Source of the DNA: a virus
Taxonomy: Duplodnaviria; Caudoviricetes
Reading direction: 5' to 3' (one strand)
IMG/VR virus record: IMGVR_UViG_3300044723_008170
Span: 1-50,564 of that record
Length of the DNA stretch: 50,564 nucleotides
In this document: one piece after another, positions 2,147 through 44,893 of the stretch
Position numbering within the stretch: the first letter of the stretch is position 1
Layout: the number at the start of each line of letters is the position of its first letter
Notes under the pieces: generated by a model
What the model saw: only the letters and a program-made list of their open reading frames with translations
What the model was told of the DNA's origin: nothing
The model's database searches: none
Made by a program: the position numbers and the translations under genes

Positions 2147-3301
2147 TTAATATTGTGAACCCGATCCAAGTTCAACTACGGCTGTTAGATCTCCGACATC
2201 TGTGCCATTTGTGTCCGATGCAAATGGAAACTTATCGATATTGTTTGCAATTGCGGGTCTTCTGCCTCCAGCAGTATATCCGTTAGTCGTAGATGATGAT
2301 CCCGAACCCCTTCTCATAGCAACCGCTAGATCTGCTACATCTGTTGAGTTTCCATCGGCTGAAAACGGAAATTTTTGAATATCATTTCTTTCTCCTGGAG
2401 GTGTTCCTCCTGACACATATCCATGAGTAGTTGAACTTTGACCAACATGTTGGTATACTATAAATAACAGATCTCCAACATCTGTAGCATTACCATCAAC
2501 ACTAAATGAAAATTTGTCAATAGTGTTTACTATAGGAGTTCCACCTGCTGATCTGTATCCATGAGTACTTGATGATTGACCAGTAGTATTATTTTTACTC
2601 TCAGTTAGATCACCAACATCAGTTGCATTGCCATCAACACTAAACGAAAACTTGTCTATAACATTGGTATAACCCGGATTAACAGTACCTCCAGCAGTAT
2701 ATCCATTTTCAGAAGAAGATGCTCCAGCTGGGGTTTGTATTCTATTAGCTGTTGTTAAGTCACCAACATCACTTCCATTCCCATCAGTCGCAAAAGCATA
2801 TTTTTCAATTGTGTTAAGATATGTAGATCCCGGAAATGAAGTTCCTCCAGAACTATATCCATGAGTTAAACTCTTTTGACCAGTTGCTGCTGATGCAACA
2901 TTAACTAAATCCCCAACATCCGTAGCATTGCCATCAGATGTAAACGAATATTTTTCAATAGTATCTACAGTAGTTGGTGAGCTTGATGGGGATATACCTC
3001 CAGCATTATATCCACTCACAGAACCTTGAAATGAATAGGTTTCAATAGTCTCAGCACTATCAACTGCATTCCATGCTGTTCCATTATAAAAATAAATTGT
3101 ACCAGCAGAAGTGGCAGCAAGTGTTCCAATAAATACAGAATCAGTTGGCATTACGCCAGCACTGTCATACAATATAGTACCATCACTTACTTGTTCAGAT
3201 GCTCGTGTAAGTCTTAGAATATCTGAAATAGAACTCGATGAATCAGTGGCATTTGATTTTGCTTCGAGTGCTGCAATAATTTCTGTTAAACTAATTGTCA
3301 T
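2147..3301 (-). CDS. Six-repeat Kelch-like beta-propeller protein, paralog 8 of the array (putative virion receptor-binding/appendage protein)
   Basis: Six copies of GY..GG...I[DEQ]K[FY].F..D.N.TDVGDL after a ~90 aa N-terminal module. Confidence 0.75.
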   Translation of the reverse strand: MTISLTEIIAALEAKSNATDSSSSISDILRLTRASEQVSDGTILYDSAGVMPTDSVFIGTLAATSAGTIYFYNGTAWNAVDSAETIETYSFQGSVSGYNAGGISPSSSPTTVDTIEKYSFTSDGNATDVGDLVNVASAATGQKSLTHGYSSGGTSFPGSTYLNTIEKYAFATDGNGSDVGDLTTANRIQTPAGASSSENGYTAGGTVNPGYTNVIDKFSFSVDGNATDVGDLTESKNNTTGQSSSTHGYRSAGGTPIVNTIDKFSFSVDGNATDVGDLLFIVYQHVGQSSTTHGYVSGGTPPGERNDIQKFPFSADGNSTDVADLAVAMRRGSGSSSTTNGYTAGGRRPAIANNIDKFPFASDTNGTDVGDLTAVVELGSGSQY

Positions 3302-4477
3302 TTAACTTTCCTGTCCAGCTGGAGCCCATCGAGCGCTTGTTAGATCCCCAACATCTGTAGCGTTTTCATCAGTGCTGAAAGGAAATTTGTCAACTGTATT
3401 AGAACGATTTGGTGATCCGATCGCTGGATTATATCCAGCAGATGTATATCCATGTGTTGTTGAAGATGTGCCAGCGCCTTGAGCACGCGCCAAAGTAATA
3501 TCGGCTATGTCTGTACCATTAGCATCAGTTGCAAATGGATATTTATCAATACTATTTAATTGTGCTCCTCCAGGATGAGCTCTGCCTCCAGCTGAATATC
3601 CATCAGTCTCTGAATTAGAACCTGAGTTTCCATATCTTGCACTTGACAAATCTGCAACATCAGTTGCGTTACCATCTGTACTAAATGGAAACTTTTCAAT
3701 CATTGAATGCTGAGCATCTGGCCCGGGAAATGCATTACCTCCTGCAACATATCCGTGAGTAGTTGATCCGTTACCACCAAGTTCAGATCTATCATCTGTT
3801 AAATCTCCAACATCTGTAGCATTAGCATCAGCAACTAAAGAAAATTTCTGAATAACATTAATACGGCTAGGAGTCTCTCCTCCAGAAACGTATCCGTGTG
3901 TCGTTGATTCAGCAGCTGCTGAAGTATAACTTGTTACTGTTAAATCTCCTACATCAGTAGAATTCTCATCAACCGAAAACGAAAACTTTTGAATAACATT
4001 AGAATATGATGGGGTAGCTCCTCCAGCAACATATCCATGAGTAGTTGAGCGAATTCCTGTTGCTGCGTAAACTCCCGATAACAGATCCCCAACATCAGTC
4101 GCGTTACCATCAGTAGAAAATGGTATTTTGTCAATAATATTTGATCCCGGAGGTACACTTCCTCCCGAAGTATATGAAGCTACAGATCCTTGAGCAACAA
4201 GGCCTGCAGCTGCTGCTCCGTCCAATGATCCAGTCAATGTATCCCATGTACCATTATTAAATTTAATGATACCGGCAGACTTTACATATGCTAATTTAAT
4301 ATTTGTTGTTGTGGCATCAGGTAATGCACCATCACTATCATAAGAGATAATAGTGTTGCCATCAGCAAGTTTAATTGCTTTCAGAGTATCAAGAATCTCA
4401 GCAGTACTCGTAGACGAATCAATATTATTCGCCTTGTACTGTAGAGTTTCAAATAATCCTTTTACATTAATTGGCAT
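3302..4477 (-). CDS. Six-repeat Kelch-like beta-propeller protein, paralog 7
   Basis: Same repeat, with N-terminal YDS.G.LP...FNNGTW module. Confidence 0.75.
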   Translation of the reverse strand: MPINVKGLFETLQYKANNIDSSTSTAEILDTLKAIKLADGNTIISYDSDGALPDATTTNIKLAYVKSAGIIKFNNGTWDTLTGSLDGAAAAGLVAQGSVASYTSGGSVPPGSNIIDKIPFSTDGNATDVGDLLSGVYAATGIRSTTHGYVAGGATPSYSNVIQKFSFSVDENSTDVGDLTVTSYTSAAAESTTHGYVSGGETPSRINVIQKFSLVADANATDVGDLTDDRSELGGNGSTTHGYVAGGNAFPGPDAQHSMIEKFPFSTDGNATDVADLSSARYGNSGSNSETDGYSAGGRAHPGGAQLNSIDKYPFATDANGTDIADITLARAQGAGTSSTTHGYTSAGYNPAIGSPNRSNTVDKFPFSTDENATDVGDLTSARWAPAGQES

Positions 4478-4479
4478 GA

Positions 4480-5661
4480 TTACACCTGCATAGCGCCTTC
4501 TGTTTTGTGAGCAATGAGTAGATCTCCTACATCAGTAGCATTTGCATCGGTGCTGAAAGGAAATTTATCGATAACGTTAGTGACTGCCGGACCTAGATCT
4601 CCTCCAGCGCCATATCCACTGGCTGTAGATGAAGTTCCATTTTTTTCGAATGCAGACACTGTTGTATCACCAACATCTGTTGCATTGCCATCAGATGCAA
4701 AAGAAAATTTATCGATGGTATTATGAATAGTTGCGGATGGCCAAGGAGTTCCTCCAGACGCGTATCCATGTGAACTCGAATTTTGACCTTGCCCTGCTGC
4801 TCCTCCAAATCTTCGAGCAACAGTTAAGTCCCCAACATCAGTCATTGTGCCTTCTGTGGCAAAAGGAAACTTTTCGATAGCATTTATCGTTGTGATCGCT
4901 GCATTAGCTCCACCATATGCATACAGAACCGTGCCAGAGTTGCATGCATAAGAATTGAGTGAAATTGTAGCTGTATCTCCTACATTTGTATTTGACGTAT
5001 CAGCTGCAAATTCATATTTAGAAATTCTAGTAGTAAATCCTGCAGGCCAAGGATTGACACCAGCAACTTGATATGCTGCATATTCACTAGAACTATAACT
5101 GCTAGAACTATGTGCAACATGATTGTTAGTAGTCGCAGCATTACCATCACTTGCAAATGAAAACTTATCGACAGTCACGACCTGTCCCGGATTTCCACCA
5201 GATAGCTGATATCCATCTGTTGAAGAAGATCCTCCAGTACCTGGATTTAAAATATTTCTAGTCAAATCTCCAACATCTGTTGAATTACCATCAGATACAA
5301 ATGAAAATTTTTCAATAACATTAGTAGTAGTAGGACTGTTGCCACCAGTGACATAGCCACTTGTAGATCCTTGGAATGTCCAAGGAGGGACAGGCGCAGT
5401 ATAACTACTACTATCTAATGTATCCCATCCTCCAGATTCACCACTATAAACTCGAATCGTACCATCAGCAGTCATTGCGATAGTACCTATGTATTCATTT
5501 CCAGTCGGAAGAACACCAGCACTATCATATACATTCTTACCGCCAGTCAAACGCTCGGCAGCAGTTACCATCTGAAGAAGATTCAAGACAGGTGTATTCG
5601 AATCAGCTGCCGCAATTTTATTTTCAAGATCAGCAATGATGAGTGAGAGATCTACTGACAT
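4480..5661 (-). CDS. Six-repeat Kelch-like beta-propeller protein, paralog 6
   Basis: Same architecture. Repeats 2-3 are more divergent. Confidence 0.75.
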   Translation of the reverse strand: MSVDLSLIIADLENKIAAADSNTPVLNLLQMVTAAERLTGGKNVYDSAGVLPTGNEYIGTIAMTADGTIRVYSGESGGWDTLDSSSYTAPVPPWTFQGSTSGYVTGGNSPTTTNVIEKFSFVSDGNSTDVGDLTRNILNPGTGGSSSTDGYQLSGGNPGQVVTVDKFSFASDGNAATTNNHVAHSSSSYSSSEYAAYQVAGVNPWPAGFTTRISKYEFAADTSNTNVGDTATISLNSYACNSGTVLYAYGGANAAITTINAIEKFPFATEGTMTDVGDLTVARRFGGAAGQGQNSSSHGYASGGTPWPSATIHNTIDKFSFASDGNATDVGDTTVSAFEKNGTSSTASGYGAGGDLGPAVTNVIDKFPFSTDANATDVGDLLIAHKTEGAMQV

Positions 5662-5664
5662 TGT

Positions 5665-6840
5665 TTACACCTGTTGTCCTGATCCGCCATATCTTCCAAC
5701 TGTCAAATCGCCTACATCAGACGAATTTCCATCAACGGAAAACGAAAATTTTTCAATAGCAGTAGAATAAGATGGACTAACTGCCGGATCATAATATGTA
5801 GTAGCATAGCCACTTGCTGTTGAACTTTGTCCTGTTAACCTGAACGTTGATACTAACAAATCACCAACATCAGTAGCATTAGCATCAGTTGCGAATGGAA
5901 ACTTATCAATTATGTTAGAGAATGCGGCTCCAGGATAAATTCTACCACCAGATGCATATCCACTCACAGATGATGATTGTCCGGCTAATTGTCCTCTAGA
6001 TTGTGTTAAATCACCGACATCAGTTGCATTAGCATCAGTAGAAAATGGAAATTTATCAATTGTGTTGTATGTTGTTGAAGGAGAACCAAAACCACCACTG
6101 TGATACCCATCTGTTGATGATGACTGACCAGAACCATCTCTTCCAACAGTCAAATCTCCGACATCTGTGGCATTAGCATCAGTACTAAATGGGAACTTAT
6201 CGATAACGGTGTTGCCAGACTGACCAGAATTATAACCACTAACTTCTGACGATTGTCCTCCACTGAAGTTTCTACCTACAGTTAGATCACCTACATCAGT
6301 AGCATTAGCATCAACACTAAATGGAAACTTTGAAATAACATTAGAAGCAGGTGCTGGAATGCTTGGAGAAGCTCCTCCGGATGAATAACCACTTACTTTT
6401 GATGACTGTCCAGTATTATATGTAGTACCTACAGTTAGATCACCTACATCAGTAGCATTAGCATCAGCTGTAAATGGAAACTTGTCAATAGTATTACTAT
6501 AAACAACAGGCGGTGTACCCGGCCAAAAGAATCCGCCAGATGCATATCCGCTTGTTGATCCCGGAAATACATAAGGTTCTACACTTGCGCTATCAGCAAT
6601 TCCAGCCCACCCATAATCCCCACGAACTTTCAATGTGGCAGAGTCAGCAACATATGCAATCATTCCTTCATATGCATCATCTGTAGGCAATACACCAGAA
6701 CTATCATAAATGATCTGACCACCACCAAGTCTCTCAGCATCAGTCACATATTGCAGAACAGTAGCAATCGGAGTATTTGAATCCGCTGCAGCGATCTTCG
6801 CATTGAGATCTGCAATCATTTGTGAGAGACTGATTGTCAT
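5665..6840 (-). CDS. Six-repeat Kelch-like beta-propeller protein, paralog 5
   Basis: Six repeats of the [DSE]KF[PS]F..D[AG]N..DVGDL type. Confidence 0.75.
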   Translation of the reverse strand: MTISLSQMIADLNAKIAAADSNTPIATVLQYVTDAERLGGGQIIYDSSGVLPTDDAYEGMIAYVADSATLKVRGDYGWAGIADSASVEPYVFPGSTSGYASGGFFWPGTPPVVYSNTIDKFPFTADANATDVGDLTVGTTYNTGQSSKVSGYSSGGASPSIPAPASNVISKFPFSVDANATDVGDLTVGRNFSGGQSSEVSGYNSGQSGNTVIDKFPFSTDANATDVGDLTVGRDGSGQSSSTDGYHSGGFGSPSTTYNTIDKFPFSTDANATDVGDLTQSRGQLAGQSSSVSGYASGGRIYPGAAFSNIIDKFPFATDANATDVGDLLVSTFRLTGQSSTASGYATTYYDPAVSPSYSTAIEKFSFSVDGNSSDVGDLTVGRYGGSGQQV

Positions 6841-6843
6841 TGA

Positions 6844-7998
6844 TTATACCTGTGCAGATGCTACTGAATATTTACCAGCAGTTAAGTCACCGACGTCTGT
6901 GGCATTAGCATCTGTAGCAAATGGAAATTTTTCAATTTCGTTATTCGTAGTAGGATAACCACCGGCTTTATATCCACTCACAGTTGAAGAAGAACCACCC
7001 ATTAGATAAGAATTATTTGTTCCAGTTAAGTCACCGACGTCTGTTGCATTTCCATCAGAACTGAATGGATATTTGTCAATAACATTAGTAACACCTCCAC
7101 CTTCTGTCCGACCTCCTGAGTTATATCCATAAGTGTCGCTATTTTGCCCAGATGCATATAACCTTGTTAACGTCATATCTCCAACATCGGTAGCATTAGC
7201 ATCGGTAGAAAATGGAAATTTATCAATAGTATTGAGAACTGCTGGTGAAGGGTTTATACCACCAGAAGTATATCCATTATCTGGAGACGACTGCCCTGCT
7301 GACGAATAACGACTAACTGTTAAATTACCAACATCTGTTGAAGTTTCTTCACCAGCAAAAGAAAACTTTTCTATTTCATCTTTTGCTACACTTCCTGTAG
7401 TTAAACCAGCAGATGAATAACCATGTGTAGAATAACTTTGTGATGCCAAATAGGAATTAGCTGTTGCTAAATCACCAGCATCAGTTGCATTTGTATCAGT
7501 GGCAAATGGGAATTTTTCACGAGTTGTTGCAGCCGCTGGCCAACCACCTAATCTATATCCAAAAGTGCTAGAAGATACCCCGGCAAGATATCTACCGGTA
7601 GTAACTAGATCGCCAACATCTGTAGCGTTACCATCTGATGAAAATGAATATTTTTCTATTACATTTTGCGCTAGCGTTGGACCACCACCCATAACATATC
7701 CACTTACAGATCCTTGATAAGTGTAAGAGCTAGCGGCTGCAGCAGCACCCAACAACGGATTATCCCATGTTCCATTATTAAATCTCAGTGTTCGTGAATT
7801 ACTCAGGTATGCAATTCGTTCAGTTGTAGTCGCAGCATCTGGAAGATCACCAGCACTGTCATAGTTACGAATCAACGATCCTTCTGCTTTTTGAGCTGCT
7901 TTCATGATGTCAATCATGTCTTGCACACTCGTGGAAGAAGTCACAGCATGTTCTTTTTTCTGAATAATTTGTACAAGGTTTTTAATATCTATTGCCAT
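6844..7998 (-). CDS. Six-repeat Kelch-like beta-propeller protein, paralog 4
   Basis: Same architecture, with its own late promoter 5 nt upstream of the ATG. Confidence 0.75.
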   Translation of the reverse strand: MAIDIKNLVQIIQKKEHAVTSSTSVQDMIDIMKAAQKAEGSLIRNYDSAGDLPDAATTTERIAYLSNSRTLRFNNGTWDNPLLGAAAAASSYTYQGSVSGYVMGGGPTLAQNVIEKYSFSSDGNATDVGDLVTTGRYLAGVSSSTFGYRLGGWPAAATTREKFPFATDTNATDAGDLATANSYLASQSYSTHGYSSAGLTTGSVAKDEIEKFSFAGEETSTDVGNLTVSRYSSAGQSSPDNGYTSGGINPSPAVLNTIDKFPFSTDANATDVGDMTLTRLYASGQNSDTYGYNSGGRTEGGGVTNVIDKYPFSSDGNATDVGDLTGTNNSYLMGGSSSTVSGYKAGGYPTTNNEIEKFPFATDANATDVGDLTAGKYSVASAQV

Positions 7999-8003
7999 GA
8001 TTC

Positions 8004-8011
8004 TATTTATA
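8004..8011 (-). promoter_or_regulatory. T4-type late promoter TATAAATA
   Basis: Exact gp55-type consensus in the only sizeable intergenic gap inside the array. Confidence 0.8.
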
Positions 8012-8018
8012 CCTTACA

Positions 8019-9230
8019 TTAATCCTGTTGTCCCGAGCCCCATGATCGACCCACTGTTAAATCGCCTACATCAGTGGAGTTTGCATCGGTGCTAAAAGGA
8101 AATTTTTGAATAATATTTAAATATAAAGGCGCATCAGCTCCACCACTAACATAACCATTATCAGTAGATGATTGCCCAACAGTTCTGTATATATTCGATA
8201 ATAAATCCCCCACATCAGTAGCATTTGCATTGCTACTAAATGAAAACTTATCAATAACATCACAACGCGTTGTCGGCGTATCACTGCCTCCTGCATTGTA
8301 CCCATACTCTGCAGATGATTGTCCAGCATGATATCCTCTTGCTATAGTTAAATAACCAACTGTTACTGCATTAGCATCAGATGCAAAAGGAAATTTGTGG
8401 ACAATATCAGTACTCGGATAACTTCCTGAATTATATCCATGTTCAGTAGAGGATTGACCCGCAGAAGCATATAAAGACGCTATCAAATCACCAACATCAG
8501 TTGCATTAGCGTCTACACTAAAAGGAAACTTTTGTATAATATCTTTAGCTGGATTAAGTCCTCCAGAAGTGTATCCATGTGTTTCACTAGATTGTCCTCC
8601 TCCAAACGCAAAAGTAAACAATAGATCTCCAACATCAGTTGAATTAGCATCAACTGCAAATGGAAACTTTTGAATTACATTACTGTAAGGAGCTCCACCG
8701 GATACATAACCATTTGTTTCTGATGATTGCCCTGCCCCTCCGCGAGAATTACTTAATAAATCTCCAACATCTGTGGCATTTACATCAGTGCTAAATGGAA
8801 ACTTATCAATTGTGTTAGTTTCTGGTGGTGTAAAACCTCCTGAAGTATAACCACTGACAGTCCCTGGGAAACTATGAGGTGGTAGTGTAATATCAGCAAA
8901 GTTATCACTATCATTTGCATTTAATACAATTTTTTGCCAACCTGCAGAATTAGTTATATCATAATTACCATCGTCATTTAATAATGCTTTTGAGAAAAAG
9001 AATGTACCAAATGAATCGTCAGTACTTGCCGAAACATAAAATAATTGACCAATGTTATTTGAATCAATGGCAGGAAGATCACCATAATGCTTAACTTCTT
9101 GAACACCTTTAATGTTATTCAAACTCTGATATGCCTGAACACGGCGAAGTAAGTCAGTAGTTGTTGCACTACTGTCAGCTGACATTTTGGTGTTTAACTG
9201 AGTCAAGATATTTGAAATATTAATTGCCAT
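8019..9230 (-). CDS. Six-repeat Kelch-like beta-propeller protein, paralog 3
   Basis: Same repeats, with a longer (~120 aa) N-terminal module beginning MAINI. Confidence 0.75.
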   Translation of the reverse strand: MAINISNILTQLNTKMSADSSATTTDLLRRVQAYQSLNNIKGVQEVKHYGDLPAIDSNNIGQLFYVSASTDDSFGTFFFSKALLNDDGNYDITNSAGWQKIVLNANDSDNFADITLPPHSFPGTVSGYTSGGFTPPETNTIDKFPFSTDVNATDVGDLLSNSRGGAGQSSETNGYVSGGAPYSNVIQKFPFAVDANSTDVGDLLFTFAFGGGQSSETHGYTSGGLNPAKDIIQKFPFSVDANATDVGDLIASLYASAGQSSTEHGYNSGSYPSTDIVHKFPFASDANAVTVGYLTIARGYHAGQSSAEYGYNAGGSDTPTTRCDVIDKFSFSSNANATDVGDLLSNIYRTVGQSSTDNGYVSGGADAPLYLNIIQKFPFSTDANSTDVGDLTVGRSWGSGQQD

Positions 9231-9232
9231 GA

Positions 9233-10444
9233 TTACACCTGTTGTCCAGCCTGATAACCTTTTGCAAGAAGTAAATCACCCACGTCGGTAGCATTAGCAT
9301 CTGTAGCAAATGGAAATTTTTGAATTACATTCGTATACGGTGGTGCATTGCCACCAGAATTATAACCATTATCAGTAGATGAATTTCCCGCTGGACCTCG
9401 CGCACTTACTGTCATATCTCCTACATCAGTAGCATTAGCATCTGTAGCAAAAGGAAATTTGTCAATAATATTAGTGTATGCTGGGGAAAGACCTCCGGAT
9501 GTATATCCATTATCACTAGAATTTGTACCTGCAGGGCCATATCTACTCACTGTTAAATCGCCTACATCAGTGGAGTTTGCATCGGCGCTAAAAGGAAATT
9601 TTTGAATAACATTACTAATTGATGGGGTAAGACCTCCAGAAACATAACCATTATCAGTAGATGATTGGCCGGCGATCTGTCCTACTACAGTTAATAAGTT
9701 TCCAACATCTGTTGAATTAGCATCAACAGCAAAAGGAAATTTATCAATAATATTAACATAGGGTGGTCCCCCACCAGAAGTATAACCACTTGCTTCTGAG
9801 GATTGGCCGGCAACCAGACGCCGAGCACTTGTTATATCTCCAACATCTGTTGCATTAGCATCAGTGCTAAAAGGAAATTTATCAATAATATTTGTATTAC
9901 CTGGAAGAAATCCACCAGAATTATAACCACTAACATCTGAAGAGCTTCCTGCCTGTTGAATTCTATACGTTGTAGTTAAATCACCGACATCGGTTGAATT
10001 AGCATCAACAGTAAATGGAAACTTTTGAATAGTATTGTCATAAGGTAAACCACCAGAAACATAACCACTTATAGATCCTTGAGCATTAGGAACAGGAGCT
10101 GCAGCTGGCGCGGCATTCTCAGCATCACTATCAGCCCCGGTTCTAATTCTATCCCAACCACTATCAGCTGAACCTATTCTTACTGCATAATAGAATCCAG
10201 CATATGAATCACCATATACGCTGTCTAAATCAGCTCGAGCAGCAATATATGCGAAGTTACCAAGAATCGATGAATCAACAGTAGGCAACTCAGACTTTGC
10301 TCTATACTCAATGACACCCGTTGCATTATTCATAGCGAGTGTTGCTTTTGATAATGTCAACAGATAATCAGCGGTGTCAGTGCTATCAGCAGCTGCCGCT
10401 TTTGTAGTAATTTGATCAATAATGTTTTGAATATTAATTGCCAT
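9233..10444 (-). CDS. Six-repeat Kelch-like beta-propeller protein, paralog 2
   Basis: Same repeats, long MAINI-type N-terminal module. Confidence 0.75.
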   Translation of the reverse strand: MAINIQNIIDQITTKAAAADSTDTADYLLTLSKATLAMNNATGVIEYRAKSELPTVDSSILGNFAYIAARADLDSVYGDSYAGFYYAVRIGSADSGWDRIRTGADSDAENAAPAAAPVPNAQGSISGYVSGGLPYDNTIQKFPFTVDANSTDVGDLTTTYRIQQAGSSSDVSGYNSGGFLPGNTNIIDKFPFSTDANATDVGDITSARRLVAGQSSEASGYTSGGGPPYVNIIDKFPFAVDANSTDVGNLLTVVGQIAGQSSTDNGYVSGGLTPSISNVIQKFPFSADANSTDVGDLTVSRYGPAGTNSSDNGYTSGGLSPAYTNIIDKFPFATDANATDVGDMTVSARGPAGNSSTDNGYNSGGNAPPYTNVIQKFPFATDANATDVGDLLLAKGYQAGQQV

Positions 10445-10446
10445 TG

Positions 10447-11670
10447 TTATACCTGATGCCCCGACATATTTGTTAGCGAATTTGTTAAATCTGCTATATC
10501 TGTAGAATTAGCATCTGAGCTAAACGGAAACTTTTGAATCTGATTAGTAAATGATGATGGTGTAGATGCACCACCAGCGACATATCCGGATGTAGTAGAA
10601 GAAGAACCCGTACCTTGTCTAACTGTTAACAAATCTCCAACATCAGTTGCATTGGCAGTACTACTAAACGAAAACTTATCAATAACATCTGAATATGTGG
10701 TTGGAGCGGTTCTTCCTCCGGAGCTGTATCCATTTTCTTCTGACGATTGACCAGTAGGACCTGCTCTAGATACAGTGAGATCCATTAGTGTATCACTAGA
10801 ACCTGTATCTGTACTGAATGAAAATTTTTGAATTAAATTAGTTTCGTTACTAATAGGTGGGCCCGCAAATCCTCCGGAAATATATCCATTAGTTGGTGAA
10901 GATTGACTAGCTTGATCATAAACATCTGCATATAAATCACCCACATCTGTAGCATTTTCATCTGCACTAAAAGAAAATTTATCGATGACATCTTGATATC
11001 CTGGATTATATCCTCCAGACGTATATCCATGAGTTTTTGAAGTATTTCCAACCGTTCCACATCGCGCGCGCACTATTGTAGTGTCTCCAACATCAGTGGC
11101 ATTAGCATCAACTGCAAAGGGAAACTTTTGAATTACATTAGATGCTGGACCATTACCTACAGTATATCCATGAGTTTTTGATGAATTGCCGGTAGCAAGA
11201 TATGTTACAGAAATAAGATCTCCTACATCAGTGGCGTTAGCATCGGCTGTAAATGAATACTTTTGAATTACATTTGATACAGCTGGCGCTTGGCCTCCAC
11301 TGGTATATCCAGCAATCGTTCCGGGATATATGGGAGCTACATAAGGATTTGAAAAATTACTGTCTGCAGTAAGTGGAGATGCACTCCAGCTATCACCGTT
11401 ATAATAATAAAATGACCCTGTTAGATTATATGTTACACTATTACTATCTACATAGCTATAAGGAGAAGCAATAAAAGCAATCTGACCAATAAGAGCTGAA
11501 TCACCCGAAGGTAAATCACTTGCACTATTAAATGTGATAACACCATTTTCTGAATTAATAGTATTGACTGCACGATTAATTTGACTTAATTCAAAATTTG
11601 AATAAGTGCTATCTGCATTATTGTTCTTTGCAGTAATTGCATTAAGTATATTTGTAATGTTTATTGCCAT
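10447..11670 (-). CDS. Six-repeat Kelch-like beta-propeller protein, paralog 1
   Basis: Same repeats, long MAINI-type N-terminal module. Confidence 0.75.
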   Translation of the reverse strand: MAINITNILNAITAKNNNADSTYSNFELSQINRAVNTINSENGVITFNSASDLPSGDSALIGQIAFIASPYSYVDSNSVTYNLTGSFYYYNGDSWSASPLTADSNFSNPYVAPIYPGTIAGYTSGGQAPAVSNVIQKYSFTADANATDVGDLISVTYLATGNSSKTHGYTVGNGPASNVIQKFPFAVDANATDVGDTTIVRARCGTVGNTSKTHGYTSGGYNPGYQDVIDKFSFSADENATDVGDLYADVYDQASQSSPTNGYISGGFAGPPISNETNLIQKFSFSTDTGSSDTLMDLTVSRAGPTGQSSEENGYSSGGRTAPTTYSDVIDKFSFSSTANATDVGDLLTVRQGTGSSSTTSGYVAGGASTPSSFTNQIQKFPFSSDANSTDIADLTNSLTNMSGHQV

Positions 11671-16671: not shown

Positions 16672-16679
16672 TATTTATA
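16672..16679 (-). promoter_or_regulatory. T4-type late promoter TATAAATA
   Basis: Exact consensus overlapping the upstream stop codon, ~20 nt before the fibre ATG. Confidence 0.8.
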
Positions 16680-17364: not shown

Positions 17365-17393
17365 GTCAATTCCTTAAAAAAGGTTTTATTTTG

Positions 17394-17421: not shown

Positions 17422-17433
17422 ATAATTTATTTA

Positions 17434-24437: not shown

Positions 24438-24438
24438 T

Positions 24439-34064: not shown

Positions 34065-34067
34065 AAT

Positions 34068-37420: not shown

Positions 37421-40400
37421 TTAACCCTCTATTTTTCCACTATTTCTCATTTTAATTTTACCCGCTGCGTATACAATCGGATGAATAATTTTACACCAAA
37501 CATTTCCAACTAAGCTATCTTTAGCTCTTCCTTTTGTAAGAACATGTTTCAAGTGTTTAGTTCTTTCTTGTGCAAGATAAGCACCCAGTTTAGTAAGTGC
37601 ACTACTGTTTTGCATTCCTGCAACGTAAGGCTTGAACAACCAGTGATAACCTACCTCATGTAGAGGCGTCAGATGTCTACGTTGGTAAGTATCCCAGATC
37701 CTCATAGCACGCTTCCAATCTTCAAGCTGTGTTTGTCTATACATTTCAGTACAAACAATCTTCTGTCCTGGATCGCCTGCGGAATTATGCTGCTCAGTTG
37801 CTTTATCAAGGATGTCTTTACCTGTGTAATAATCAGTATCATGATAATTCGCAAAGCCGCCAGCAAATCCTTTCGGATCTCTAGCCCAACCTCCGACAGT
37901 GACTGGATCATTTGACCACGTGCCTGTCTTACCGAGTTGTACGTTAACATATCCATCAACTTTAGTATGACCACCGCCATCATCTCCTTGATAGCTATAA
38001 TGTTTATTGTTAACAGTTTTTTGTCCTTGAACTGTTAATACTCGAGTTGATAGATATTCTTTTTGATATGTGTCGATATATCCAGCAGCAGTGTATGGAG
38101 CACGAGCGACTGCAAGCGCGTCTTGTTCTTTATCTACACTAATATCTAAGATCTTAAATTGGCGTGTACCACATCTAAATCTAATAGTTTCAGTGTTAGG
38201 AAGGAAGAAAGATCCAGTCACTTCACCGTTAGCATCTGTTTCAAGTGTATCACTTCCATCAGGGTGTGAAGTAGCATTTTTATAAAGATTTCCATAATCC
38301 GTAGTATCATTTGAATAATATTGGAAAGATTCCGGTCTTACCCAATCGGCTACAGATACTCCGTCAAAGTAAGCAAAGACTTTAGAGTTTGGTCTTAAGC
38401 CAGTAGCTTTAAAGTAAATTTTACGAGATCTTATGAACGGAATAAGCACAACATCAATTACTCTATTCGCTACTGCCTTTTTAACTACTTCATCAGATAC
38501 AACTCGGTTTGATTCATAAACATATTTTGAAGATGTTGAAGATTTTTTAACATTTGTGGTACTTCCAACTTTTAATTTTTCGATTGGTGTACCGCCCCAG
38601 TTCCATTCCCAGTTATTCCACATGAATGCTTGTTCGGTGTTAAGTTTGACGCCTCCATCAATAGTCTTAGGTGCTGCTGTTACAACATCTCTCCATTCGT
38701 CTGATGCTGGAGAAAGTTGAACAGTTCCTTCATGAACTACAACCGAGAAAGGATTAATTTGAATAGATTGGCTGGCTAGATTTTGATTTACATATAATGC
38801 TTCATCATATGCAATATAAACATTATCACCTTTTTTTATAACATTTATAGAAGATGCAGAATCAAAAAGTAACTTAATATTATCTTCACCGTGTGCGGGT
38901 CTTAAACTCTTTCTTTGTGGATCAATCGAAGCATTATAACCCTGATTAGCAACTGAAGAGAGCATTTGTGTAGAAAAGTTATCTACAAAGAAACCAGATT
39001 TAGTTCTGTTATTTCCAGAAGAATCAAGAACGTCAAAGTTCTTTGTATCCATTTCTAGCATAGATAAAGCTGTAATTTCTTCTAGCTTATCAATGCGCTC
39101 TTCTAAATCACCTATGTCAGCCATAGTGTATCTTTTATAATCGATTCTTTTAATAGCAACATCTTTTGGACTTAGTGTGTTGCCACCTAGTCCAATATTA
39201 TATAATTCTAAAGTCTGAGGAGGCTTAAGAGGAAGCTGTGGAATCAATCCTGGGGTACCTTCTTCAAATACAATGTTGCCTTCAATGTCAAGAAGCAATT
39301 TACCAGCCGTAGGTATGTAATGTACAGCATCAAATTGTATCAGATCATTTGGTTGAGGCAATTCATGTACTCGAGCACCAGTGCCACTGTTTACAAAATC
39401 TCCATCAGAATCTTTAATAGATCTAAAATCTAAAACTTCTCTTAAACGAACTATTCCTCTATTACTTGGTAAGATATAAGATGGAATATCCTTATAATCT
39501 ACTTGACCGGTATAAGAGTTGACCGAGAAGAAATCTCCATTTGTGCCATGCCTAAAGTACTTAAACTTTGCTGTGACATTTCCGGAAGGAGCTGAGTTTC
39601 CAGCTTTAAGAATAAGTCTACCAGTACCATAAAAAGAATTGCGCTGACCATTATCTAAAGTAAATCTATTAAAATAGCTTTGACTGCTATCAGCAGTATT
39701 AACAATTTCTGTCAAAGAATAAATATCAGCTTTTCTCATAGACAGATACTTTAAGCCAGATCCATCTGACTCCATTTGTCCGATGACAGATCCGTCAGTC
39801 AAGATTTTTTGTCTTACACTTGCTGCAGATTTTCTAACATATCCGATTACTTCTAAATTACTCGAGCTAGCAGGACCGCCAGTGAATGTGCCATCAGATG
39901 CAAATACAATTCCAGTATCAATCGAACTATCAGCATTTGCTGCAATCCAATCACCTACATTGACAAATGTTTCTCCAGTGCCAGTTAATGAAGCTACTGA
40001 TCCAGCTCCGCCGGCGTCAGTTGTGACATTTGAAAATTTTCTTTGTACATCTACAGTGATATCACTAATTGCTTTAGGTCTTTGTTCTGGAATTCCAAAA
40101 AGTAAAAGATTATTTCCCGGTTCTTTAATAACGGCTTTACTATTTTCTAGCGTAGGATTAAAATAGTCTGTGGCACTCGTTCCAATACTCTTTACATTCC
40201 GGAATGCTTGTCCAGAATTCATTTGAATATCAATTAAGTGATAGTTATAACTAGATCCTGCTCCTTCATTGATAGCAGAAATTCTACATGTTCCTATAGT
40301 GCTGCCTCCATAGTCAACAGCACTTCTTAAATTTAATTTTTCAAAAGTGTTGATATTAGGGAGGCCACTTGTATTTGAAGGATCTACTACTACATAATTT

Positions 40401-41497
40401 CCATAATTTGCTGAGCTTTGTTGATTTTCTAAAGAAATTGTATTAGTAGCTCTATCAATTCTTAGAACCGAAGGAAAGTGTCTTGCTGCTCTATATCCTT
40501 CAACAACTGCAATACCATCGCTGACTTGAAGTTGAAGCTTTGTAGCATCACTATCTAAATCAAATTTAACAGTAAATGGTTCTACGACATAGTTACCAGA
40601 ATTTTCGAAAATTCTTTGCGCAATTACATCATTAGGAACTTCATAAGCATCTGTAACTTGATTAGTCGCGAATGGTGCACCATTCTTTAGAGTCGCTAAG
40701 TGAATGAAGTTTTCATCAGATGCAATTTCAGTTTTTAATGCAATAGTTAATCTAATTTTTAATCTATCAGCGCCAGGAGATGAAAGATTAGGAGTAGCAC
40801 CTTGGTTATCATATAGTCCATCATCATCAGAAACAGTGACTGTTTCTTCTATGACTTTAAATCCAATATCAGCATCTGGCGCATCTGAGTATTTCGAGAT
40901 TACTTTAGATTGATTATCTGTAAAGACAAAAAATCCTTTAGTGTAGTAAATTCCAGATCCAACAGAAAATCTAGAACCAGTTCCGGTTGCCGGATTAGAA
41001 GTAGTATTAGTTGTCTGTACTGTTAAAGTAACACTTCCATTGTTAAGATCTTCGCCTGGATCAAACCTAATAGGACCCGTAGTTGCGGATGTCGATGAAA
41101 GAGTGTCAGTATATTGTACATAGAGAGTAGCTGGATCACTGCCCTCAGCAGCAATAACTTCAATAACTCTTGCAATAACTCCAGATGTTTGGCCAGTAAA
41201 AGAAGTTCCAACTAAATTACTCGGTGTATTTGGAAGAGCGTTTGTAGAAGTGTTTAATTTTACAAATTCAAAGCTATTATTAAGAGCAATACTTCCTGGC
41301 TTTACTACTGCACCTTCCTTAAAGATGTTATCACCGAATCTTCTAATCTGCTCTTGCAGAATAGTTTGCATTTGCGTAAGTTCACGTGCCTGTAAAGCTT
41401 TACCACTATTAAAAAGAATACGATGATAACCATCGCTATCAGCAAAGTCATCCTTATAAGTATTCGTGAAAGTTGAGCTAGTAATTACAGTTGCCAT
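37421..41497 (-). CDS. DUF4815/VrlC-like large virion protein, N-terminal part, with appended KIVCT domain
   Basis: Y.DDF...YHRILF..G.ALQARELTQ.Q.ILQ.QI, PGADRLKI, RYTM.DIG.LE.RI..LE, KSGFFVDNF, INPF.V, L.P.SD.W and PFIRSR. Confidence 0.82.
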   Translation of the reverse strand: MATVITSSTFTNTYKDDFADSDGYHRILFNSGKALQARELTQMQTILQEQIRRFGDNIFKEGAVVKPGSIALNNSFEFVKLNTSTNALPNTPSNLVGTSFTGQTSGVIARVIEVIAAEGSDPATLYVQYTDTLSSTSATTGPIRFDPGEDLNNGSVTLTVQTTNTTSNPATGTGSRFSVGSGIYYTKGFFVFTDNQSKVISKYSDAPDADIGFKVIEETVTVSDDDGLYDNQGATPNLSSPGADRLKIRLTIALKTEIASDENFIHLATLKNGAPFATNQVTDAYEVPNDVIAQRIFENSGNYVVEPFTVKFDLDSDATKLQLQVSDGIAVVEGYRAARHFPSVLRIDRATNTISLENQQSSANYGNYVVVDPSNTSGLPNINTFEKLNLRSAVDYGGSTIGTCRISAINEGAGSSYNYHLIDIQMNSGQAFRNVKSIGTSATDYFNPTLENSKAVIKEPGNNLLLFGIPEQRPKAISDITVDVQRKFSNVTTDAGGAGSVASLTGTGETFVNVGDWIAANADSSIDTGIVFASDGTFTGGPASSSNLEVIGYVRKSAASVRQKILTDGSVIGQMESDGSGLKYLSMRKADIYSLTEIVNTADSSQSYFNRFTLDNGQRNSFYGTGRLILKAGNSAPSGNVTAKFKYFRHGTNGDFFSVNSYTGQVDYKDIPSYILPSNRGIVRLREVLDFRSIKDSDGDFVNSGTGARVHELPQPNDLIQFDAVHYIPTAGKLLLDIEGNIVFEEGTPGLIPQLPLKPPQTLELYNIGLGGNTLSPKDVAIKRIDYKRYTMADIGDLEERIDKLEEITALSMLEMDTKNFDVLDSSGNNRTKSGFFVDNFSTQMLSSVANQGYNASIDPQRKSLRPAHGEDNIKLLFDSASSINVIKKGDNVYIAYDEALYVNQNLASQSIQINPFSVVVHEGTVQLSPASDEWRDVVTAAPKTIDGGVKLNTEQAFMWNNWEWNWGGTPIEKLKVGSTTNVKKSSTSSKYVYESNRVVSDEVVKKAVANRVIDVVLIPFIRSRKIYFKATGLRPNSKVFAYFDGVSVADWVRPESFQYYSNDTTDYGNLYKNATSHPDGSDTLETDANGEVTGSFFLPNTETIRFRCGTRQFKILDISVDKEQDALAVARAPYTAAGYIDTYQKEYLSTRVLTVQGQKTVNNKHYSYQGDDGGGHTKVDGYVNVQLGKTGTWSNDPVTVGGWARDPKGFAGGFANYHDTDYYTGKDILDKATEQHNSAGDPGQKIVCTEMYRQTQLEDWKRAMRIWDTYQRRHLTPLHEVGYHWLFKPYVAGMQNSSALTKLGAYLAQERTKHLKHVLTKGRAKDSLVGNVWCKIIHPIVYAAGKIKMRNSGKIEG

Positions 41498-41507: not shown

Positions 41508-42881
41508 CTAGAGTGAAATAATAACTTTAATATCTTCTGTTTGATCTGTTGATCTAACTACGGGTGCTCTATTTTCAATATAGAGAATGTCACCCGAGAA
41601 TTTGTTGACATCGTCATTCGTAAATGCATCACTATCCACATCGTACCCTTCGGCGGATAGTGTACCGGTCGCACCAGGTGATGTTACAGCTTCTCCTTCT
41701 TGGAAGCTAACAAATCCAGTAGCTTCTGTCTGGTGAGCATAAATCTTATCACTATCAACTTGATCAATAATTGCTTGCGCAGTTGAAGTGCCTCCAGTGA
41801 TTGTTCTATCAACCACAAAGTTAGAAGCATCACTTACTGATGTAAGTCTAAGATAACGAAGAACTTTACCAGTCGTGTCTGTATAAGCAGAATCATTATA
41901 ATCCGCAGGTGCTCTCATAAGAACAATTTGTCTAAAGTCCTGATCTACAATAAAATCATTGCCATCGGCCCCGGCAGGCTTTGCATTAAACATGATCGAA
42001 GAAGATCTAAGATCATTAATAGGATTAGCACCAATTCCATTCGCTGGACTTAAGATAGCTCTAATTTCTGCACCTGATCCTCCACCGCCAGTTAGAGTTA
42101 CACCAGCATATTGATATGAATGACCCATTGTCATGCCACTATCAACACTCGAATCTAGTTCAATTTTTGTAATAGCACCACCACTTACAGTAGCAGTGGC
42201 AGAGACTCCAGTTCCATCACCATTAATAGTAACAGTAGGTGCTGAAGTATATCCTGTTCCGCCATCAGTAATTCTAAATCCTAAAAGCTGTCCAGAACTT
42301 GCTGCTTCTTGGACAAGGGCTTGCTGTTGCTGAATTGAATTCAGTGCAGCAGAACCCGAAGAATCTTCGATAAGAGCAACCGGCATAAAGTTAGCCGATA
42401 AGAAACGTGCAGATGTTACACCACTCAATGAATAGAGATACTTCCAAACATATCCATCAGAAGTTCTAAGAGGCTTAGTTGACTGTCCAGTAGGTTTCAC
42501 CGTTGAAGCAACTGCTAAACCATTACTATCTCTGCCTTGTTGCAGACAAATGTAAATCTGATTATCTTCGGTCAATACATAATAAGCATTTGTAGGATAT
42601 GAAGAATACGCATCATCATAGCCACTATAGATTGTACCAGAAGACCAGTTATGGCGAGGAATAACGTACGATGCATCGGATGCAAGTTTAATAGACTGCA
42701 AAGATAAACGAGCATTTCTTTGAGATCTCAAAGAATTCGTAGGAGTAGGTACTGTTTCAGCACTATCCCATTGCTCAGATCTTCCGATCCCAATATAGTA
42801 CTTAGTAGCGCCTGCATCAAACTCGTCATAAATCGTATCGAGTAATTGTTTTTTCAGTGCGTCAGTAATAATTGCTGTCAT
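41508..42881 (-). CDS. gp8: Baseplate wedge subunit, T4 gp8-like
   Basis: YYIGIGR...W, IPR.NW.SG..Y, YYV.T....Y.CL, T.DGYVWKYLY, FRQI and SGDILYIENR.P..R..DQ.EDIK. Confidence 0.85.
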   Translation of the reverse strand: MTAIITDALKKQLLDTIYDEFDAGATKYYIGIGRSEQWDSAETVPTPTNSLRSQRNARLSLQSIKLASDASYVIPRHNWSSGTIYSGYDDAYSSYPTNAYYVLTEDNQIYICLQQGRDSNGLAVASTVKPTGQSTKPLRTSDGYVWKYLYSLSGVTSARFLSANFMPVALIEDSSGSAALNSIQQQQALVQEAASSGQLLGFRITDGGTGYTSAPTVTINGDGTGVSATATVSGGAITKIELDSSVDSGMTMGHSYQYAGVTLTGGGGSGAEIRAILSPANGIGANPINDLRSSSIMFNAKPAGADGNDFIVDQDFRQIVLMRAPADYNDSAYTDTTGKVLRYLRLTSVSDASNFVVDRTITGGTSTAQAIIDQVDSDKIYAHQTEATGFVSFQEGEAVTSPGATGTLSAEGYDVDSDAFTNDDVNKFSGDILYIENRAPVVRSTDQTEDIKVIISL

Positions 42882-42891
42882 CGTTTATCTC

Positions 42892-43893
42892 TTAAGTAAT
42901 AGTTATATATGTATCAGACGAATCAGCAGATCCAATCATGAACCAATTGCTGCCGTCCCAAATAACTTGGCATGAGCCATTTTCTGCAATTGAGAAGGAA
43001 GTGCCTTGTGCAAAGCTAGCTGGTGTTACTGTGACTAATCCAGTGTTTGCGTTTACCATTACCTTAAATTCACCAGTGACTGTGCCATTAGCAAGTGTAG
43101 CAGCAAGAGCAGATGCCTTACTGAAAATAATAAATGATCTTTCAGTTGATACAGCACCGTCTGCAGTTTGACTTACATGATTAAAGGCAATCTTATTCGT
43201 CTCAACTGCACCTGAACCTTTAGCACTCACATTTAAGTTTACATTTGTATCAGTGCCCGTGGCAGAAATAGTTGGGCCAGAACCTGTCGCAGCATTTGCA
43301 ATTGTTACTTCATTCGTAGCTGATGAAGTAGCAGTAAGCTTAATAATTTCAGCGCCATTTGCATCATTGATAAGTGTACCGATTGTAGGTGAATTTAGTG
43401 TTGGAGTAGTTAAAGTTTTATTAGTAAGCGTTTGAGTGTGATTAGCAAATACAAATGTATCATTTCCTGTTAAGAGAGGAAGTGTCACCGTTCTATTCGC
43501 AGTTAATTCACTGACCGCAATATTATATGTATGATCTGCCGAAGTATCATTAATCTTTGGAGTCGTTAAAGTAGGCGTTGTCAAAGTTTTGTTTGTAAGG
43601 GTTTGAGTCGCACTATTCAATACGATTGTTCCTGTTGCATCAGGAATAGTCACAGTTCTATCTGTAGTAGGATCAGCAACAATAAGACTTGTTTCCCAAC
43701 TGTCAGCACTAGTACCTTCCCAGATAATAGCAGTATTTGACAGTGTAATTTGCGTTGACAGCGCATCACTGTCTCCACCGAACCGACGATAGATCTCTAC
43801 AAAATTTTCATTAATCTTTTGACCTGCCGCGCGAAGAGTATCGCCGGTGCCATCATTGGCAGAAGATCCGATTGCAATATTTTGTCTTGTCAT
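42892..43893 (-). CDS. Baseplate wedge/tail fibre connector, gp9/gp10-like N-terminus
   Basis: RQNI.IG..ANDGTGDTLR.AG.KIN.NF.EIY, plus QTLTNKTLT repeats. Confidence 0.75.
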   Translation of the reverse strand: MTRQNIAIGSSANDGTGDTLRAAGQKINENFVEIYRRFGGDSDALSTQITLSNTAIIWEGTSADSWETSLIVADPTTDRTVTIPDATGTIVLNSATQTLTNKTLTTPTLTTPKINDTSADHTYNIAVSELTANRTVTLPLLTGNDTFVFANHTQTLTNKTLTTPTLNSPTIGTLINDANGAEIIKLTATSSATNEVTIANAATGSGPTISATGTDTNVNLNVSAKGSGAVETNKIAFNHVSQTADGAVSTERSFIIFSKASALAATLANGTVTGEFKVMVNANTGLVTVTPASFAQGTSFSIAENGSCQVIWDGSNWFMIGSADSSDTYITIT

Positions 43894-43920
43894 TTTAATC
43901 CCTTACAACGTGATTAAAAG

Positions 43921-43928
43921 TATTTATA
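43921..43928 (-). promoter_or_regulatory. T4-type late promoter TATAAATA
   Basis: Exact consensus in the intergenic gap upstream of the gp9-like gene. Confidence 0.8.
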
Positions 43929-43954
43929 TTGAAAATAAGCATTAAGTATCAAAC

Positions 43955-44893
43955 TTATGCATTATTGCTGTCAGTATATCTTGTTCCATCCATTGTGTAC
44001 AGTGTGCCTGCCATGTCTGCTTCAGCACCAGCATTTGCACTGTCGTCGAAAGTAGGAGCGTTTGGTGAAACAAGGTCATTAATATTATAGAAGTTGCGCT
44101 GAAGTTCTTGAGCAGTATATGTCTGATACCTTGAAATGTAGTTCTTATCAATATCCGAATACTGTGTTTCATTTTCAACGAGTGCAACTGCTTGGGTAAA
44201 CGGTGCAGTTACATCGAGTGAAGCTTGAGAAAGAAGAATAGGACCAATGTTTGAATCTGCCAGCGATAAAGGCATAGAATTTAATCCAAGATCAGCTTCA
44301 CCTTCATTGACAACCTGCCCTTGGAAATACCATCCGGCTGGATGAACATATTTTTTATAGAGAGTATTCCAAGTTTGTGTACCAATTCCTGTTTTAATAA
44401 GAATAGAATAAATTTGATATAACTCATAGTTCTGAATAAACTTTAAGGAGTTGAATCCAATTTCAGATTCACCGACAATAAACATTTGTCTTTTAGGATA
44501 TTCAATTTCAACTTCTTGTTGAAAGAATGCTCTAAAGAATTCACGAATAGAATTTTCAGATCCCTTTGATCTAAAGAAGTTTGCAAATCTTCGAGCTGTA
44601 AAACGAGGATCTGTGAAGAGATCGCCGTTTTCTAATCCAGCACTTAGTTCTTTAATAATCCTATTTAAGTTTGCAAGTTCGGTTTCTGGAATATCTCTTA
44701 CTTGATATAACTGCTTTACATCAATATCATAATTATTTGCTGCATCTTCTTGATTAATAAAATCATAATATGCCGTAAGAAAAGTCACAAGGTCAGGATA
44801 CTCTGCTCTGAAATACTCAGGCAAAACATCCTTAATTTTTCTTTCAATTAAATTAACATCTCTGCGACCGTAATCGCTTAGTTTATGCGCCAT
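43955..44893 (-). CDS. Compact baseplate wedge initiator, gp7-like
   Basis: LPEYF...YP..V.FL..YY.F, F.RSKG...S...FFR..F, YQ.YS.LIK and VHPAG. Follows gp6. Confidence 0.7.
   Translation of the reverse strand: MAHKLSDYGRRDVNLIERKIKDVLPEYFRAEYPDLVTFLTAYYDFINQEDAANNYDIDVKQLYQVRDIPETELANLNRIIKELSAGLENGDLFTDPRFTARRFANFFRSKGSENSIREFFRAFFQQEVEIEYPKRQMFIVGESEIGFNSLKFIQNYELYQIYSILIKTGIGTQTWNTLYKKYVHPAGWYFQGQVVNEGEADLGLNSMPLSLADSNIGPILLSQASLDVTAPFTQAVALVENETQYSDIDKNYISRYQTYTAQELQRNFYNINDLVSPNAPTFDDSANAGAEADMAGTLYTMDGTRYTDSNNA

Follow-up and report, generated by a model that had tools for sequence, protein, structure and literature searches.

The record IMGVR_UViG_3300044723_008170 was analysed over its whole length of 50,564 nucleotides, referred to as the window. 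This 50.6-kb stretch of an uncultured T4-like myovirus harbors baseplate, whisker, fibre and propeller genes as well as an enzyme island. The dipeptide Asp-Ser (DS) recurs in the outer virion proteins encoded here, and the original prediction interpreted it as the acceptor site of a virion glycosylation system encoded by the adjacent island. Here, we describe the motif, its distribution among related phages and the genes which accompany it. By gp6 and gp8, the nearest phages in GenBank are C48C1 (43% and 37%), then Melnitz, HTVC008M and Mosig, all placed under Kyanoviridae. Half or more of the stretch adjoining the window was present in seven runs, all labelled as estuary metagenome. Throughout, observed counts are set against the expectation from composition.

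The long fibre protein of 1657 amino acids (aa; 11677-16650, on the minus strand like all structural genes described below) comprises an Mtd_N head, helical repeats, four copies of a small beta domain and one propeller-like region. It contains 60 DS (17.9 expected, p 4e-15), 40 of them in the form DS[AD] and 37 as DSA, with just two DS in residues 1204-1489. The longest tandem run is DSDS, DT occurs 11 times (18.5 expected), and the 59 scored sites represent 25 distinct contexts. When repeats were collapsed in four ways, 12-24 DS (4.4-9.0 expected) and 8-15 DS[AD] (0.8-1.6 expected) were left. Repeat expansion as the sole cause is therefore ruled out, as had been argued beforehand, and the motif also occurs in unrelated folds. 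Eight paralogous propeller-type proteins are encoded at 2147-11670, seven of which match phrog_19111. Cut at the domain boundary, their N-terminal modules (91-121 aa, 825 aa together) hold 29 DS against 6.8 expected, and their propeller domains (2331 aa) hold none against 24.4; Ser follows none of the 184 Asp residues there, compared with a family background of 4.84% (p 1e-4, for paralogs which are not independent). Between fibre and island lie a 229-aa fibre-type protein (16675-17364; five DS, four as DSA, 2.3 DS expected), a 1032-aa fibre-type protein (17434-20532; DS at chance with 10 against 10.1, DS[AD] 7 against 2.0), a 103-aa protein with two DSA (20532-20843), a 309-aa protein with a gp9/10-like C-terminal domain (20882-21811; 12 DS, 3.7 expected) and the conserved 117-aa fibre-assembly-type protein phrog_1084 (21821-22174). 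The latter carries DS in two loops, one of which is an insertion relative to Mosig and HTVC008M. The counts of 60, 12, 5 and 29 first reported for the long fibre, the 309-aa protein, the 229-aa protein and the propeller N-terminal modules were thus reproduced, as was the lack of DS in the propeller domains.

On the other side of the island, the signal of single proteins is weak. A whisker-like protein of 529 aa (34068-35657) has 8 DS against 5.5 expected, and a VrlC/DUF4815-like protein, divided into two genes of 519 and 1358 aa (35861-41497), is near chance for DS (8 against 8.1), with DS[AD] columns that are clade-specific. The gp8-like baseplate wedge protein (41508-42881) has eight DS, at residues 39, 118, 173, 243, 247, 330, 376 and 416, and the gp9-like and gp7-like proteins (42892-44893) have three each; clade-wide, these two are enriched. 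Recurrence of DS in these proteins had been noted; individually, the excess in gp7, gp8, gp9 and whisker is not significant, and it is the pool of six outer-baseplate and whisker proteins that bears the claim out (DS 35 against 23.6, p 0.017; DS[AD] 18 against 3.7, p 9e-8). The gp6-, gp25- and gp5-like genes (44893-49230, with an intervening 209-aa gene) under-use DS, as first noted, with two against 7.1 expected (gp6 1 against 4.1, gp25 0 against 0.8, gp5 1 against 2.1). The 209-aa gene itself (47204-47833) has 4 DS against 0.8 expected, which we put down to chance; its relatives hold 0-2 and are not DS-rich. The 17 enzyme-type genes of the window contain 14 DS against 17.9.

The 158 structural DS sites of the window include 62 DSA, 27 DSD, 23 DSS and 15 DSN. 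Across 190 non-redundant proteins of the clade, DS ranks second in over-use among 361 dipeptides (1461 against 797 expected, 1.83x). The comparison with SD, DT and ES that had been proposed as a check found only DS enriched: SD is flat (816 against 797, 1.02x), and DT (580 against 861, 0.67x) and ES (0.65x) are under-used. NS stands at 0.87x, and DG is not raised. The residue following DS is preferentially Ala (3.5x) or Asp (2.9x), and Ile (0.6x), Val (0.5x), Thr (0.4x) and Leu (0.3x) are disfavored. The signal is the tripeptide DS[A/D], which exceeds expectation about fivefold on the fibres and outer tail parts of this phage and its clade.

For the distribution among relatives, 16 clade sets (14 related IMG/VR records, C48C1 and the window) were compared with seven outgroup sets (Mosig, HTVC008M, Melnitz, P-SSM4, G026, G027 and Cr30; Melnitz, P-SSM4 and Cr30 covered in part). 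In fibre-like proteins, defined by a content of Thr, Ser, Gly and Ala over 36%, the observed/expected ratio (O/E) of DS[AD] was 2.5-9.7 in 16/16 clade sets and 0.57-1.09 in six of the seven outgroup sets; Cr30 had 4 against 1.7 expected, which is not significant. Without the composition filter, a DS-rich gene was detected in every clade set and in 0/7 outgroup sets, and 59 of 80 loci around the 117-aa gene contained one. In a gp8 tree (FastTree, 96 sequences, rooted on Cr30), the DS phages form one clade of 81 members with a support of 0.98. Outside the C48C1 subgroup, 66 of 67 clade gp8 proteins carry DS[ADE] and 62 carry it at least twice; among 15 outgroup gp8 proteins four carry it once and none twice. 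The C48C1 subgroup (n = 14) lacks DS[ADE] in gp8, and its fibres, where covered, carry the motif as DSD or DSE. Since clade sequences are related by descent, the p values overstate independence. In the sequences compared, the motif is limited to one clade and absent from the outgroup phages.

Alignments of the same folds in clade and outgroup gave a similar picture. DS[AD] was found 55 times in clade gp8 (8.3 expected) compared with 2 (2.2) in the outgroup, 19 times (1.6) compared with 0 (0.8) in gp15, and 28 times (6.2) compared with 2 (2.6) in the sheath; homologous folds outside the clade show no excess of the motif. The two VrlC parts have 31 against 5.0 and 28 against 7.3 expected in the clade, and 2 against 1.3 and 1 against 0.8 in the outgroup. 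Clade gp7 (DS[AD] 23 against 4.4), the N-terminal part of clade gp9 (DS 46 against 13.6) and the clade's 117-aa protein (DS[AD] 21 against 2.6) are enriched as well, with no DS[AD] excess in outgroup gp7 or the outgroup 117-aa protein. In gp8, 15 DS[AD] columns are common to three or more members and 25 occur in one or two, which indicates that DS sites turn over. All four window copies of the small beta domain of the fibre carry three DS, located at turns, and outgroup copies have none or one.

The enrichment has a counterpart in avoidance. Clade gp6 contains 21 DS against 58.1 expected (outgroup 20 against 18.1), clade gp25 3 against 10.4 and clade gp5 4 against 21.9 (there were no outgroup rows for gp5); gp13 and the tube also under-use DS in the clade. 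Among 150 propeller homologues, the DS O/E of the propeller domain is 0.31-0.37 in the 124 which lack a DS-rich N-terminal part and 0.06 in the 26 which have one (p 3e-5). The absence from propellers is thus part fold and part avoidance, with about two thirds of it being a family trait. Taken together, the sequence comparisons support DS[A/D] acting like a site read in trans: it is clade-specific, gained at unrelated loop and turn columns, and avoided in propellers, gp6, gp25 and gp5. That the motif is real, clade-wide and patterned as a tag that is read appears to us quite probable. Of the proposal that DS is an acceptor site, the part concerning a site read in trans stands, and glycosylation itself is something that we infer.

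A lineage nested in the clade (G035 and G040, with L446) appears to represent a natural shift in which parts carry the tag. DS is gone at all nine gp8 sites of the neighbouring G004 and regained in gp6 (6 against 4.2) and gp5, and the long fibre keeps DS[ADE] as DS[AE] (11 against 3.6). We considered and rejected this lineage as a clean revertant: DS is lost from gp8, gp9 and whiskers, but the long-fibre DS[ADE] is retained and a 202-aa gene described below is intact, the stop reported for it being the terminal codon. Likewise, G048 was rejected as a DS-free carrier of that gene, its 1836-aa fibre, which falls outside the composition filter, having 43 DS against 16.3 expected; every DS-negative set was afterwards rechecked without the filter.

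The genes which accompany the trait were sought in G001, a complete 153-kb relative with 82-92% identity in the gp8, gp9, 117-aa and 309-aa proteins. Besides the tail-linked island, a second, distal cluster of glycosyltransferase (GT) genes lies about 21 kb from its tail genes. Of the 194 open reading frames of G001, eight recurred in each of four further near-complete DS genomes and were missing from all five DS-free genomes with which it was compared; two of the eight are GT-fold. A gene for a 202-aa protein occurs in all ten DS-rich records that are complete or at least 83% complete (G001, G002, G016, G017, G031, G043, G045, G046, G047 and C48C1; eight were chosen via structural genes, G016 and G017 via the 202-aa gene itself), the DS excess in G047 being modest (16 against 9.9). 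It is found in 0/6 DS-free phages (Mosig, HTVC008M, G026, G027, G028 and G033; in G028 and G033 DS was scored only over 21 kb around the match). A tblastn search of 50,697 GenBank phage records gave C48C1 as the sole match, and the patterns of the gene are matched by about 700 IMG/VR stretches. The 80 loci selected with the 202-aa gene contain a GT25 family in 77 cases, a GT8-like gene in 76 cases and a further GT-A family in 63; C48C1 has the 202-aa gene, lacks the GT8-like neighbour and shows weak GT25 matches. The variable part of the cluster includes methyl-, sulfo- and pyruvyl-transferases and nucleotide-sugar enzymes. It also holds genes for a RuBisCO-like protein (18 of the 80 loci), a nucleotidyltransferase (20 loci) and HAD (9 loci), as in L205:5057-6145 and related clusters. 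No Pfam GT-B match was obtained among the subset of window and distal-cluster genes scanned.

By sequence, the 202-aa protein belongs to no Pfam, PHROG or NCBIfam family and not to PF01973/DUF115, GT29 or GT42, and a PDB sequence search with its profile returned no relevant match and no sialyltransferase. Its AlphaFold model (predicted local distance difference test, pLDDT, 91.8) has GT42 sialyltransferases as best Foldseek matches (E 3e-4 and 8e-4). With VIA on the Foldseek top 1000, Maf (5mu5, Z 10.9) and CstII (1ro7, Z 10.2) are tied over 166-178 residues at root-mean-square deviations (rmsd) of 3.7-4.3; for Maf the rmsd is 3.7 over 166 residues, with about 10% identity. SteA, HPPK, GT29 enzymes and thiamin pyrophosphokinases come next. 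Judged from the model, the protein likely has the modified GT-A fold of CstII and Maf.

The presence of the 202-aa gene in this phage is suggested by an extension of the window. Over the 13,000 and 380 bases compared, the record G021 matches the window exactly, and it extends to nucleotide 348 of an ssb gene. The same ssb gene is where L143 ends, at nucleotide 330; L143 holds the 202-aa gene, a GT25 pair, a GT8-like gene and a gene of sulfotransferase type. Four runs containing the end of G021 contain L143 as well, at 97% or more (22-30 of 30 bins), with similar depths (about 30, 46, 18 and 7 at the G021 end; 25, 42, 17 and 8 for L143). A 225-base contig from run X1 reaches 110 bases beyond the end of G021, and X1 alone has a second overhang, on L143. 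Among the contigs listed, none spanning both was seen in any one table. Judging by these ends and depths, G021 and L143 are likely adjacent, and the contig abutting this phage's extension likely carries the 202-aa gene.

We propose that DS[A/D] is an acceptor tag and that a sugar would be put on its serine by a phage enzyme of the distal cluster, to which we assign a probability of about 50%. Late in infection, a soluble phage transferase would read D-S-A/D on folded or folding subunits of fibre, baseplate rim, sheath and neck and transfer an initial sugar to the serine. Foremost among the candidates is the 202-aa protein; in its predicted fold it matches CstII and Maf, the flagellin Ser/Thr transferase, enzymes with donors that are ulosonates activated by cytidine monophosphate (CMP); as the first writer it is a tentative nomination, and rather an improbable one. 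Extension of the chain would fall to the GT25 and GT8-like genes next to it, and decoration to the methyl-, sulfo- and pyruvyl-transferases, which are swappable. Shafts and rims would in this way gain a coat that is hydrophilic and probably acidic, and binding faces and inner baseplate would stay bare. The version in full, in which a stand-alone Maf-fold transferase writes ulosonate on D-S-(A/D), a GT core extends it, a swappable cassette caps it and the sequon is kept off propellers and inner baseplate, is a speculative model that we consider possible but rather doubtful.

Known systems offer partial parallels. Maf is described as a soluble enzyme which places CMP-activated ulosonate directly on surface Ser/Thr of the flagellin filament (bioRxiv 10.1101/2020.06.03.131540). 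Its central domain is related to GT42 CstII, as is the predicted fold of the phage protein; Maf is about 630 aa long with extra domains, whereas the 202-aa protein would be the catalytic-fold domain alone, with an activity predicted from the fold. In the accessible text of PMC12871550, no sequence motif beyond S/T is known for flagellin glycosylation. For staphylococcal SdgB, DSD is reported as the minimal substrate (PMC8561734). SdgA and SdgB resemble the proposed system in a Ser acceptor in Asp context and in being soluble nucleotide-sugar enzymes, and DSD is the second commonest form here; they differ as GT-B enzymes acting on long tandem SD repeats, whereas here the sites are dispersed and mostly DSA, SD is flat and the candidates are of GT-A type.

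Virion proteins assemble in the cytoplasm. The O-glycosylation of Bacteroidota, by the accessible accounts, modifies D-(S/T)-(A/I/L/V/M/T) on non-cytoplasmic proteins through a lipid-linked pathway (PMC12871550, PMC8550257). The likeness lies in an Asp strictly before the acceptor with Glu unused, in agreement with the DS and ES ratios above, and DSA is a valid sequon there. The Bacteroidota system also uses Thr, with mostly Leu, Ile or Val at +1, whereas in the phage proteins DT is at 0.67x, Leu, Ile and Val at +1 are at 0.3-0.6x and Asp is at 2.9x. The parallel drawn originally therefore fails: DT is not enriched, Asp is common at +1, the bacterial system is periplasmic, and on sequence grounds the phage motif is not a member of it. 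Mycobacteriophages glycosylate their virions with phage-encoded GTs, yielding a shield (Freeman et al. 2023 as cited in PMC12619734, PMC12801897 and PMC11256854). Phage-encoded GTs are the likeness, the genes here being GT8-like and GT25 in island and distal cluster. The mycobacteriophage glycans are reported at C-termini of capsid and tail-tube subunits, whereas the many candidate sites here are internal to fibre and outer-baseplate proteins and the tube avoids the motif. A literature search on phage virion glycosylation, an Asp-Ser motif in marine phage tails and C48C1 found the motif undescribed and nothing on C48C1; subscription papers and supplements were outside its scope.

A number of observations weigh against the distal-cluster proposal. 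Eight G001 genes share the distribution of the 202-aa gene, including a primase and a DUF932 gene, and as trait and gene arose once, in one clade, their co-occurrence is weak evidence. G045 is DS-rich though its 202-aa gene is frameshifted, and in G040 the gene is intact (with Trp where 83 of 87 family members have Asn), yet DS is lost from gp8, gp9 and whiskers. In G048, a single fibre carries the motif, and DS density varies widely with the gene intact. The fold is common to non-transferases (SteA Z 9.7, HPPK 9.2, thiamin pyrophosphokinase 8.1). CstII-type enzymes cap glycans and do not start them, so another gene of the cluster may start the chain and the 202-aa protein complete it. The distal cluster lies outside the window, and its connection to this phage is one we infer. 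Such GT clusters are read in print as modifiers of host lipopolysaccharide (LPS; PMC7029224), and by analogy with what is proposed for pelagimyophages the distal cluster may act on host LPS.

The same tag could also be read in trans by something other than a glycosyltransferase system: another group (phosphate, sulfate, acyl or phosphoglycerol), a host enzyme or a small decoration protein bound non-covalently. From enrichment and avoidance it follows only that the motif has a reader. Six of the eight trait-tracking genes are not GT-like, among them 94-aa and 103-aa unknowns, and restriction to the clade would likewise be expected of a host factor if the clade has a common host group. We regard this as unlikely, since no kinase or carrier-type transferase is among the eight and two are GT-fold and stand within a conserved GT cluster.

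A second alternative is a structural or metal-binding role, as helix or turn caps or in binding Ca or Mg in seawater, multiplied by repeats and ancestry. Asp and Ser have known helix-cap preferences. The fibre's helical repeat swaps DSA (11) with NAS, DAA, NAA and DAS (8), as a helix cap would, and non-virion core proteins avoid DS alike in clade (133 against 206) and outgroup (30 against 50); both count against a tag. The reduction of the 59 fibre sites to 25 contexts, the family share of the propeller depletion, two island loci outside the clade's usual type whose DS-rich fibres consist of one repeated unit, and the shared ancestry of the clade point the same way, and structural roles do account for part of the pattern. 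As an explanation of the whole, however, this seems improbable. Homologous folds outside the clade manage without the motif, DT, NS, SD and DG are not raised, and the sites sit variously at helix starts, hairpin tips and long loops of unrelated folds. The fibre repeat looks cap-like; in the gp8 AlphaFold model (pLDDT 79.8) none of the eight sites starts or caps a helix, seven serines being in coil or turn and four sites in low-confidence blocks. Nor does a structural role predict the avoidance in gp6, gp5 and propellers or the release of gp6 in G035/G040.

The tail-linked island (22248-32668, no strand assigned) was the writer originally proposed. Six GT-A-like genes with DxD (25685, 28498, 29771, 30504, 31369 and 32093) stand among fibre genes, together with methyltransferase-like (29154), carbamoyltransferase (27201), radical SAM (24421), Asp_Arg_Hydrox (23847) and QueC-like (23270) genes, and members of the 28498, 29154 and 29771 families occur in many DS-rich loci. 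The sequence TATAAATA, which we take to be a T4-type late promoter, is found exactly at 8004, 16672, 20871, 22229, 35785 and 43921 (minus) and 22235 (plus), upstream of fibre, propeller and baseplate genes. The copies at 22229 and 22235 stand back to back between the 117-aa gene and the island; with the latter heading the island, its expression would be late. Island and motif nevertheless do not go together. In Mosig, which has no DS excess, homologues of 29771, 31369 and 32093 at 43-47% identity occupy the same genome place, and homologues are also present in the complete DS-free G026 and G027. DS-rich G002 (87% complete) and G016 (84%) lack the island GTs (best match 29 bits). From 86 loci fetched with the 29771 family, in a search led by the Mosig sequence which therefore favours Mosig-like phages, 54 contained at least 600 aa of fibre-like protein. 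Of 46 non-redundant loci, 44 show no DS[AD] excess (pooled 7 against 58.5), and the DS-rich fibres of the other two are single repeated units; 84 of the 86 loci lack any DS-rich gene. A phrog_1962 search of 15 contigs matched five and was too insensitive to be used. The island is thus rejected as writer of the motif and largely refuted as the sole glycosylating agent, leaving this explanation very improbable; it could still extend or decorate a glycan in phages which have it. In the genomes compared, the distal cluster tracks the trait better. The island is of the same kind as the GT8-rich 'LPS' islands of pelagimyophages and cyanomyophages, with the Mosig homologues as noted, whose enzymes are assigned to host O-chain or DNA modification (PMC7029224, PMC12801897); the accessible text of these papers mentions no protein motif. 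Mosig-like island-carrying phages (L269-L354) under-use DS[AD] in structural proteins (10 against 32.3 after redundancy removal; cultured outgroup 32 against 34.9), and no dipeptide or gapped pair stood out in them as an alternative sequon. Finally, chance or a DNA-level motif, GANTC, presumably the alphaproteobacterial CcrM site and contained in GAY-TCN for Asp-Ser, is negligible as a cause: although 103 of the 158 structural sites use TCN, 55 use AGY, the same share as at other serines (p 0.19), GANTC is not elevated in other reading frames and Glu-Ser is depleted, which places the selection at the protein level.

If the glycosylation proposal is true, GT clusters of marine T4-like phages, usually called host-LPS modifiers, would gain a virion substrate with a three-residue address, and a sugar coat would matter for how the virions of this widespread marine phage group adsorb and persist. 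A small testable enzyme would also be named, and a soluble transferase of about 200 aa with a tripeptide sequon would be useful in glyco-engineering. With C48C1, the clade has a complete phage in GenBank on which the question can be tested directly. Should the chemistry be something other than sugar, a motif spread across the virion and matched by avoidance still calls for a reader.

Some further features of the window and its relatives were observed. The propeller blades repeat N-x-T/S (DANATD, DGNATD, DENSTD), which has the shape of an N-glycosylation site, is apparently a family-wide repeat feature and may be structural. In the major capsid protein (G001 16821-18185), DS occurs in one variable loop in up to six of eight clade members and in none of four outgroup phages. 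The last approximately 100 residues of the 1358-aa VrlC/DUF4815 gene look unrelated; G001 and L004 have a separate gene of 156-162 aa at the split point, and Mosig and HTVC008M have a single gene of 2000 aa. A 167-aa gene at the island edge (32628-33131), without a family match, keeps its position in the majority of relatives, Mosig and C48C1 among them, whether or not the island is present. Directly after the propeller genes, positions 20-2121 encode a fused two-domain 2OG-Fe(II) oxygenase and a sulfotransferase, the latter having no blastp homologue across 20 other genome sets. In G001, the region 34597-40774 (L095, L096) between DNA polymerase and UvsX contains unknown and nucleotide-metabolism-like genes and a weak match to T4 beta-glucosyltransferase (E 0.017), and is possibly a DNA modification cassette.

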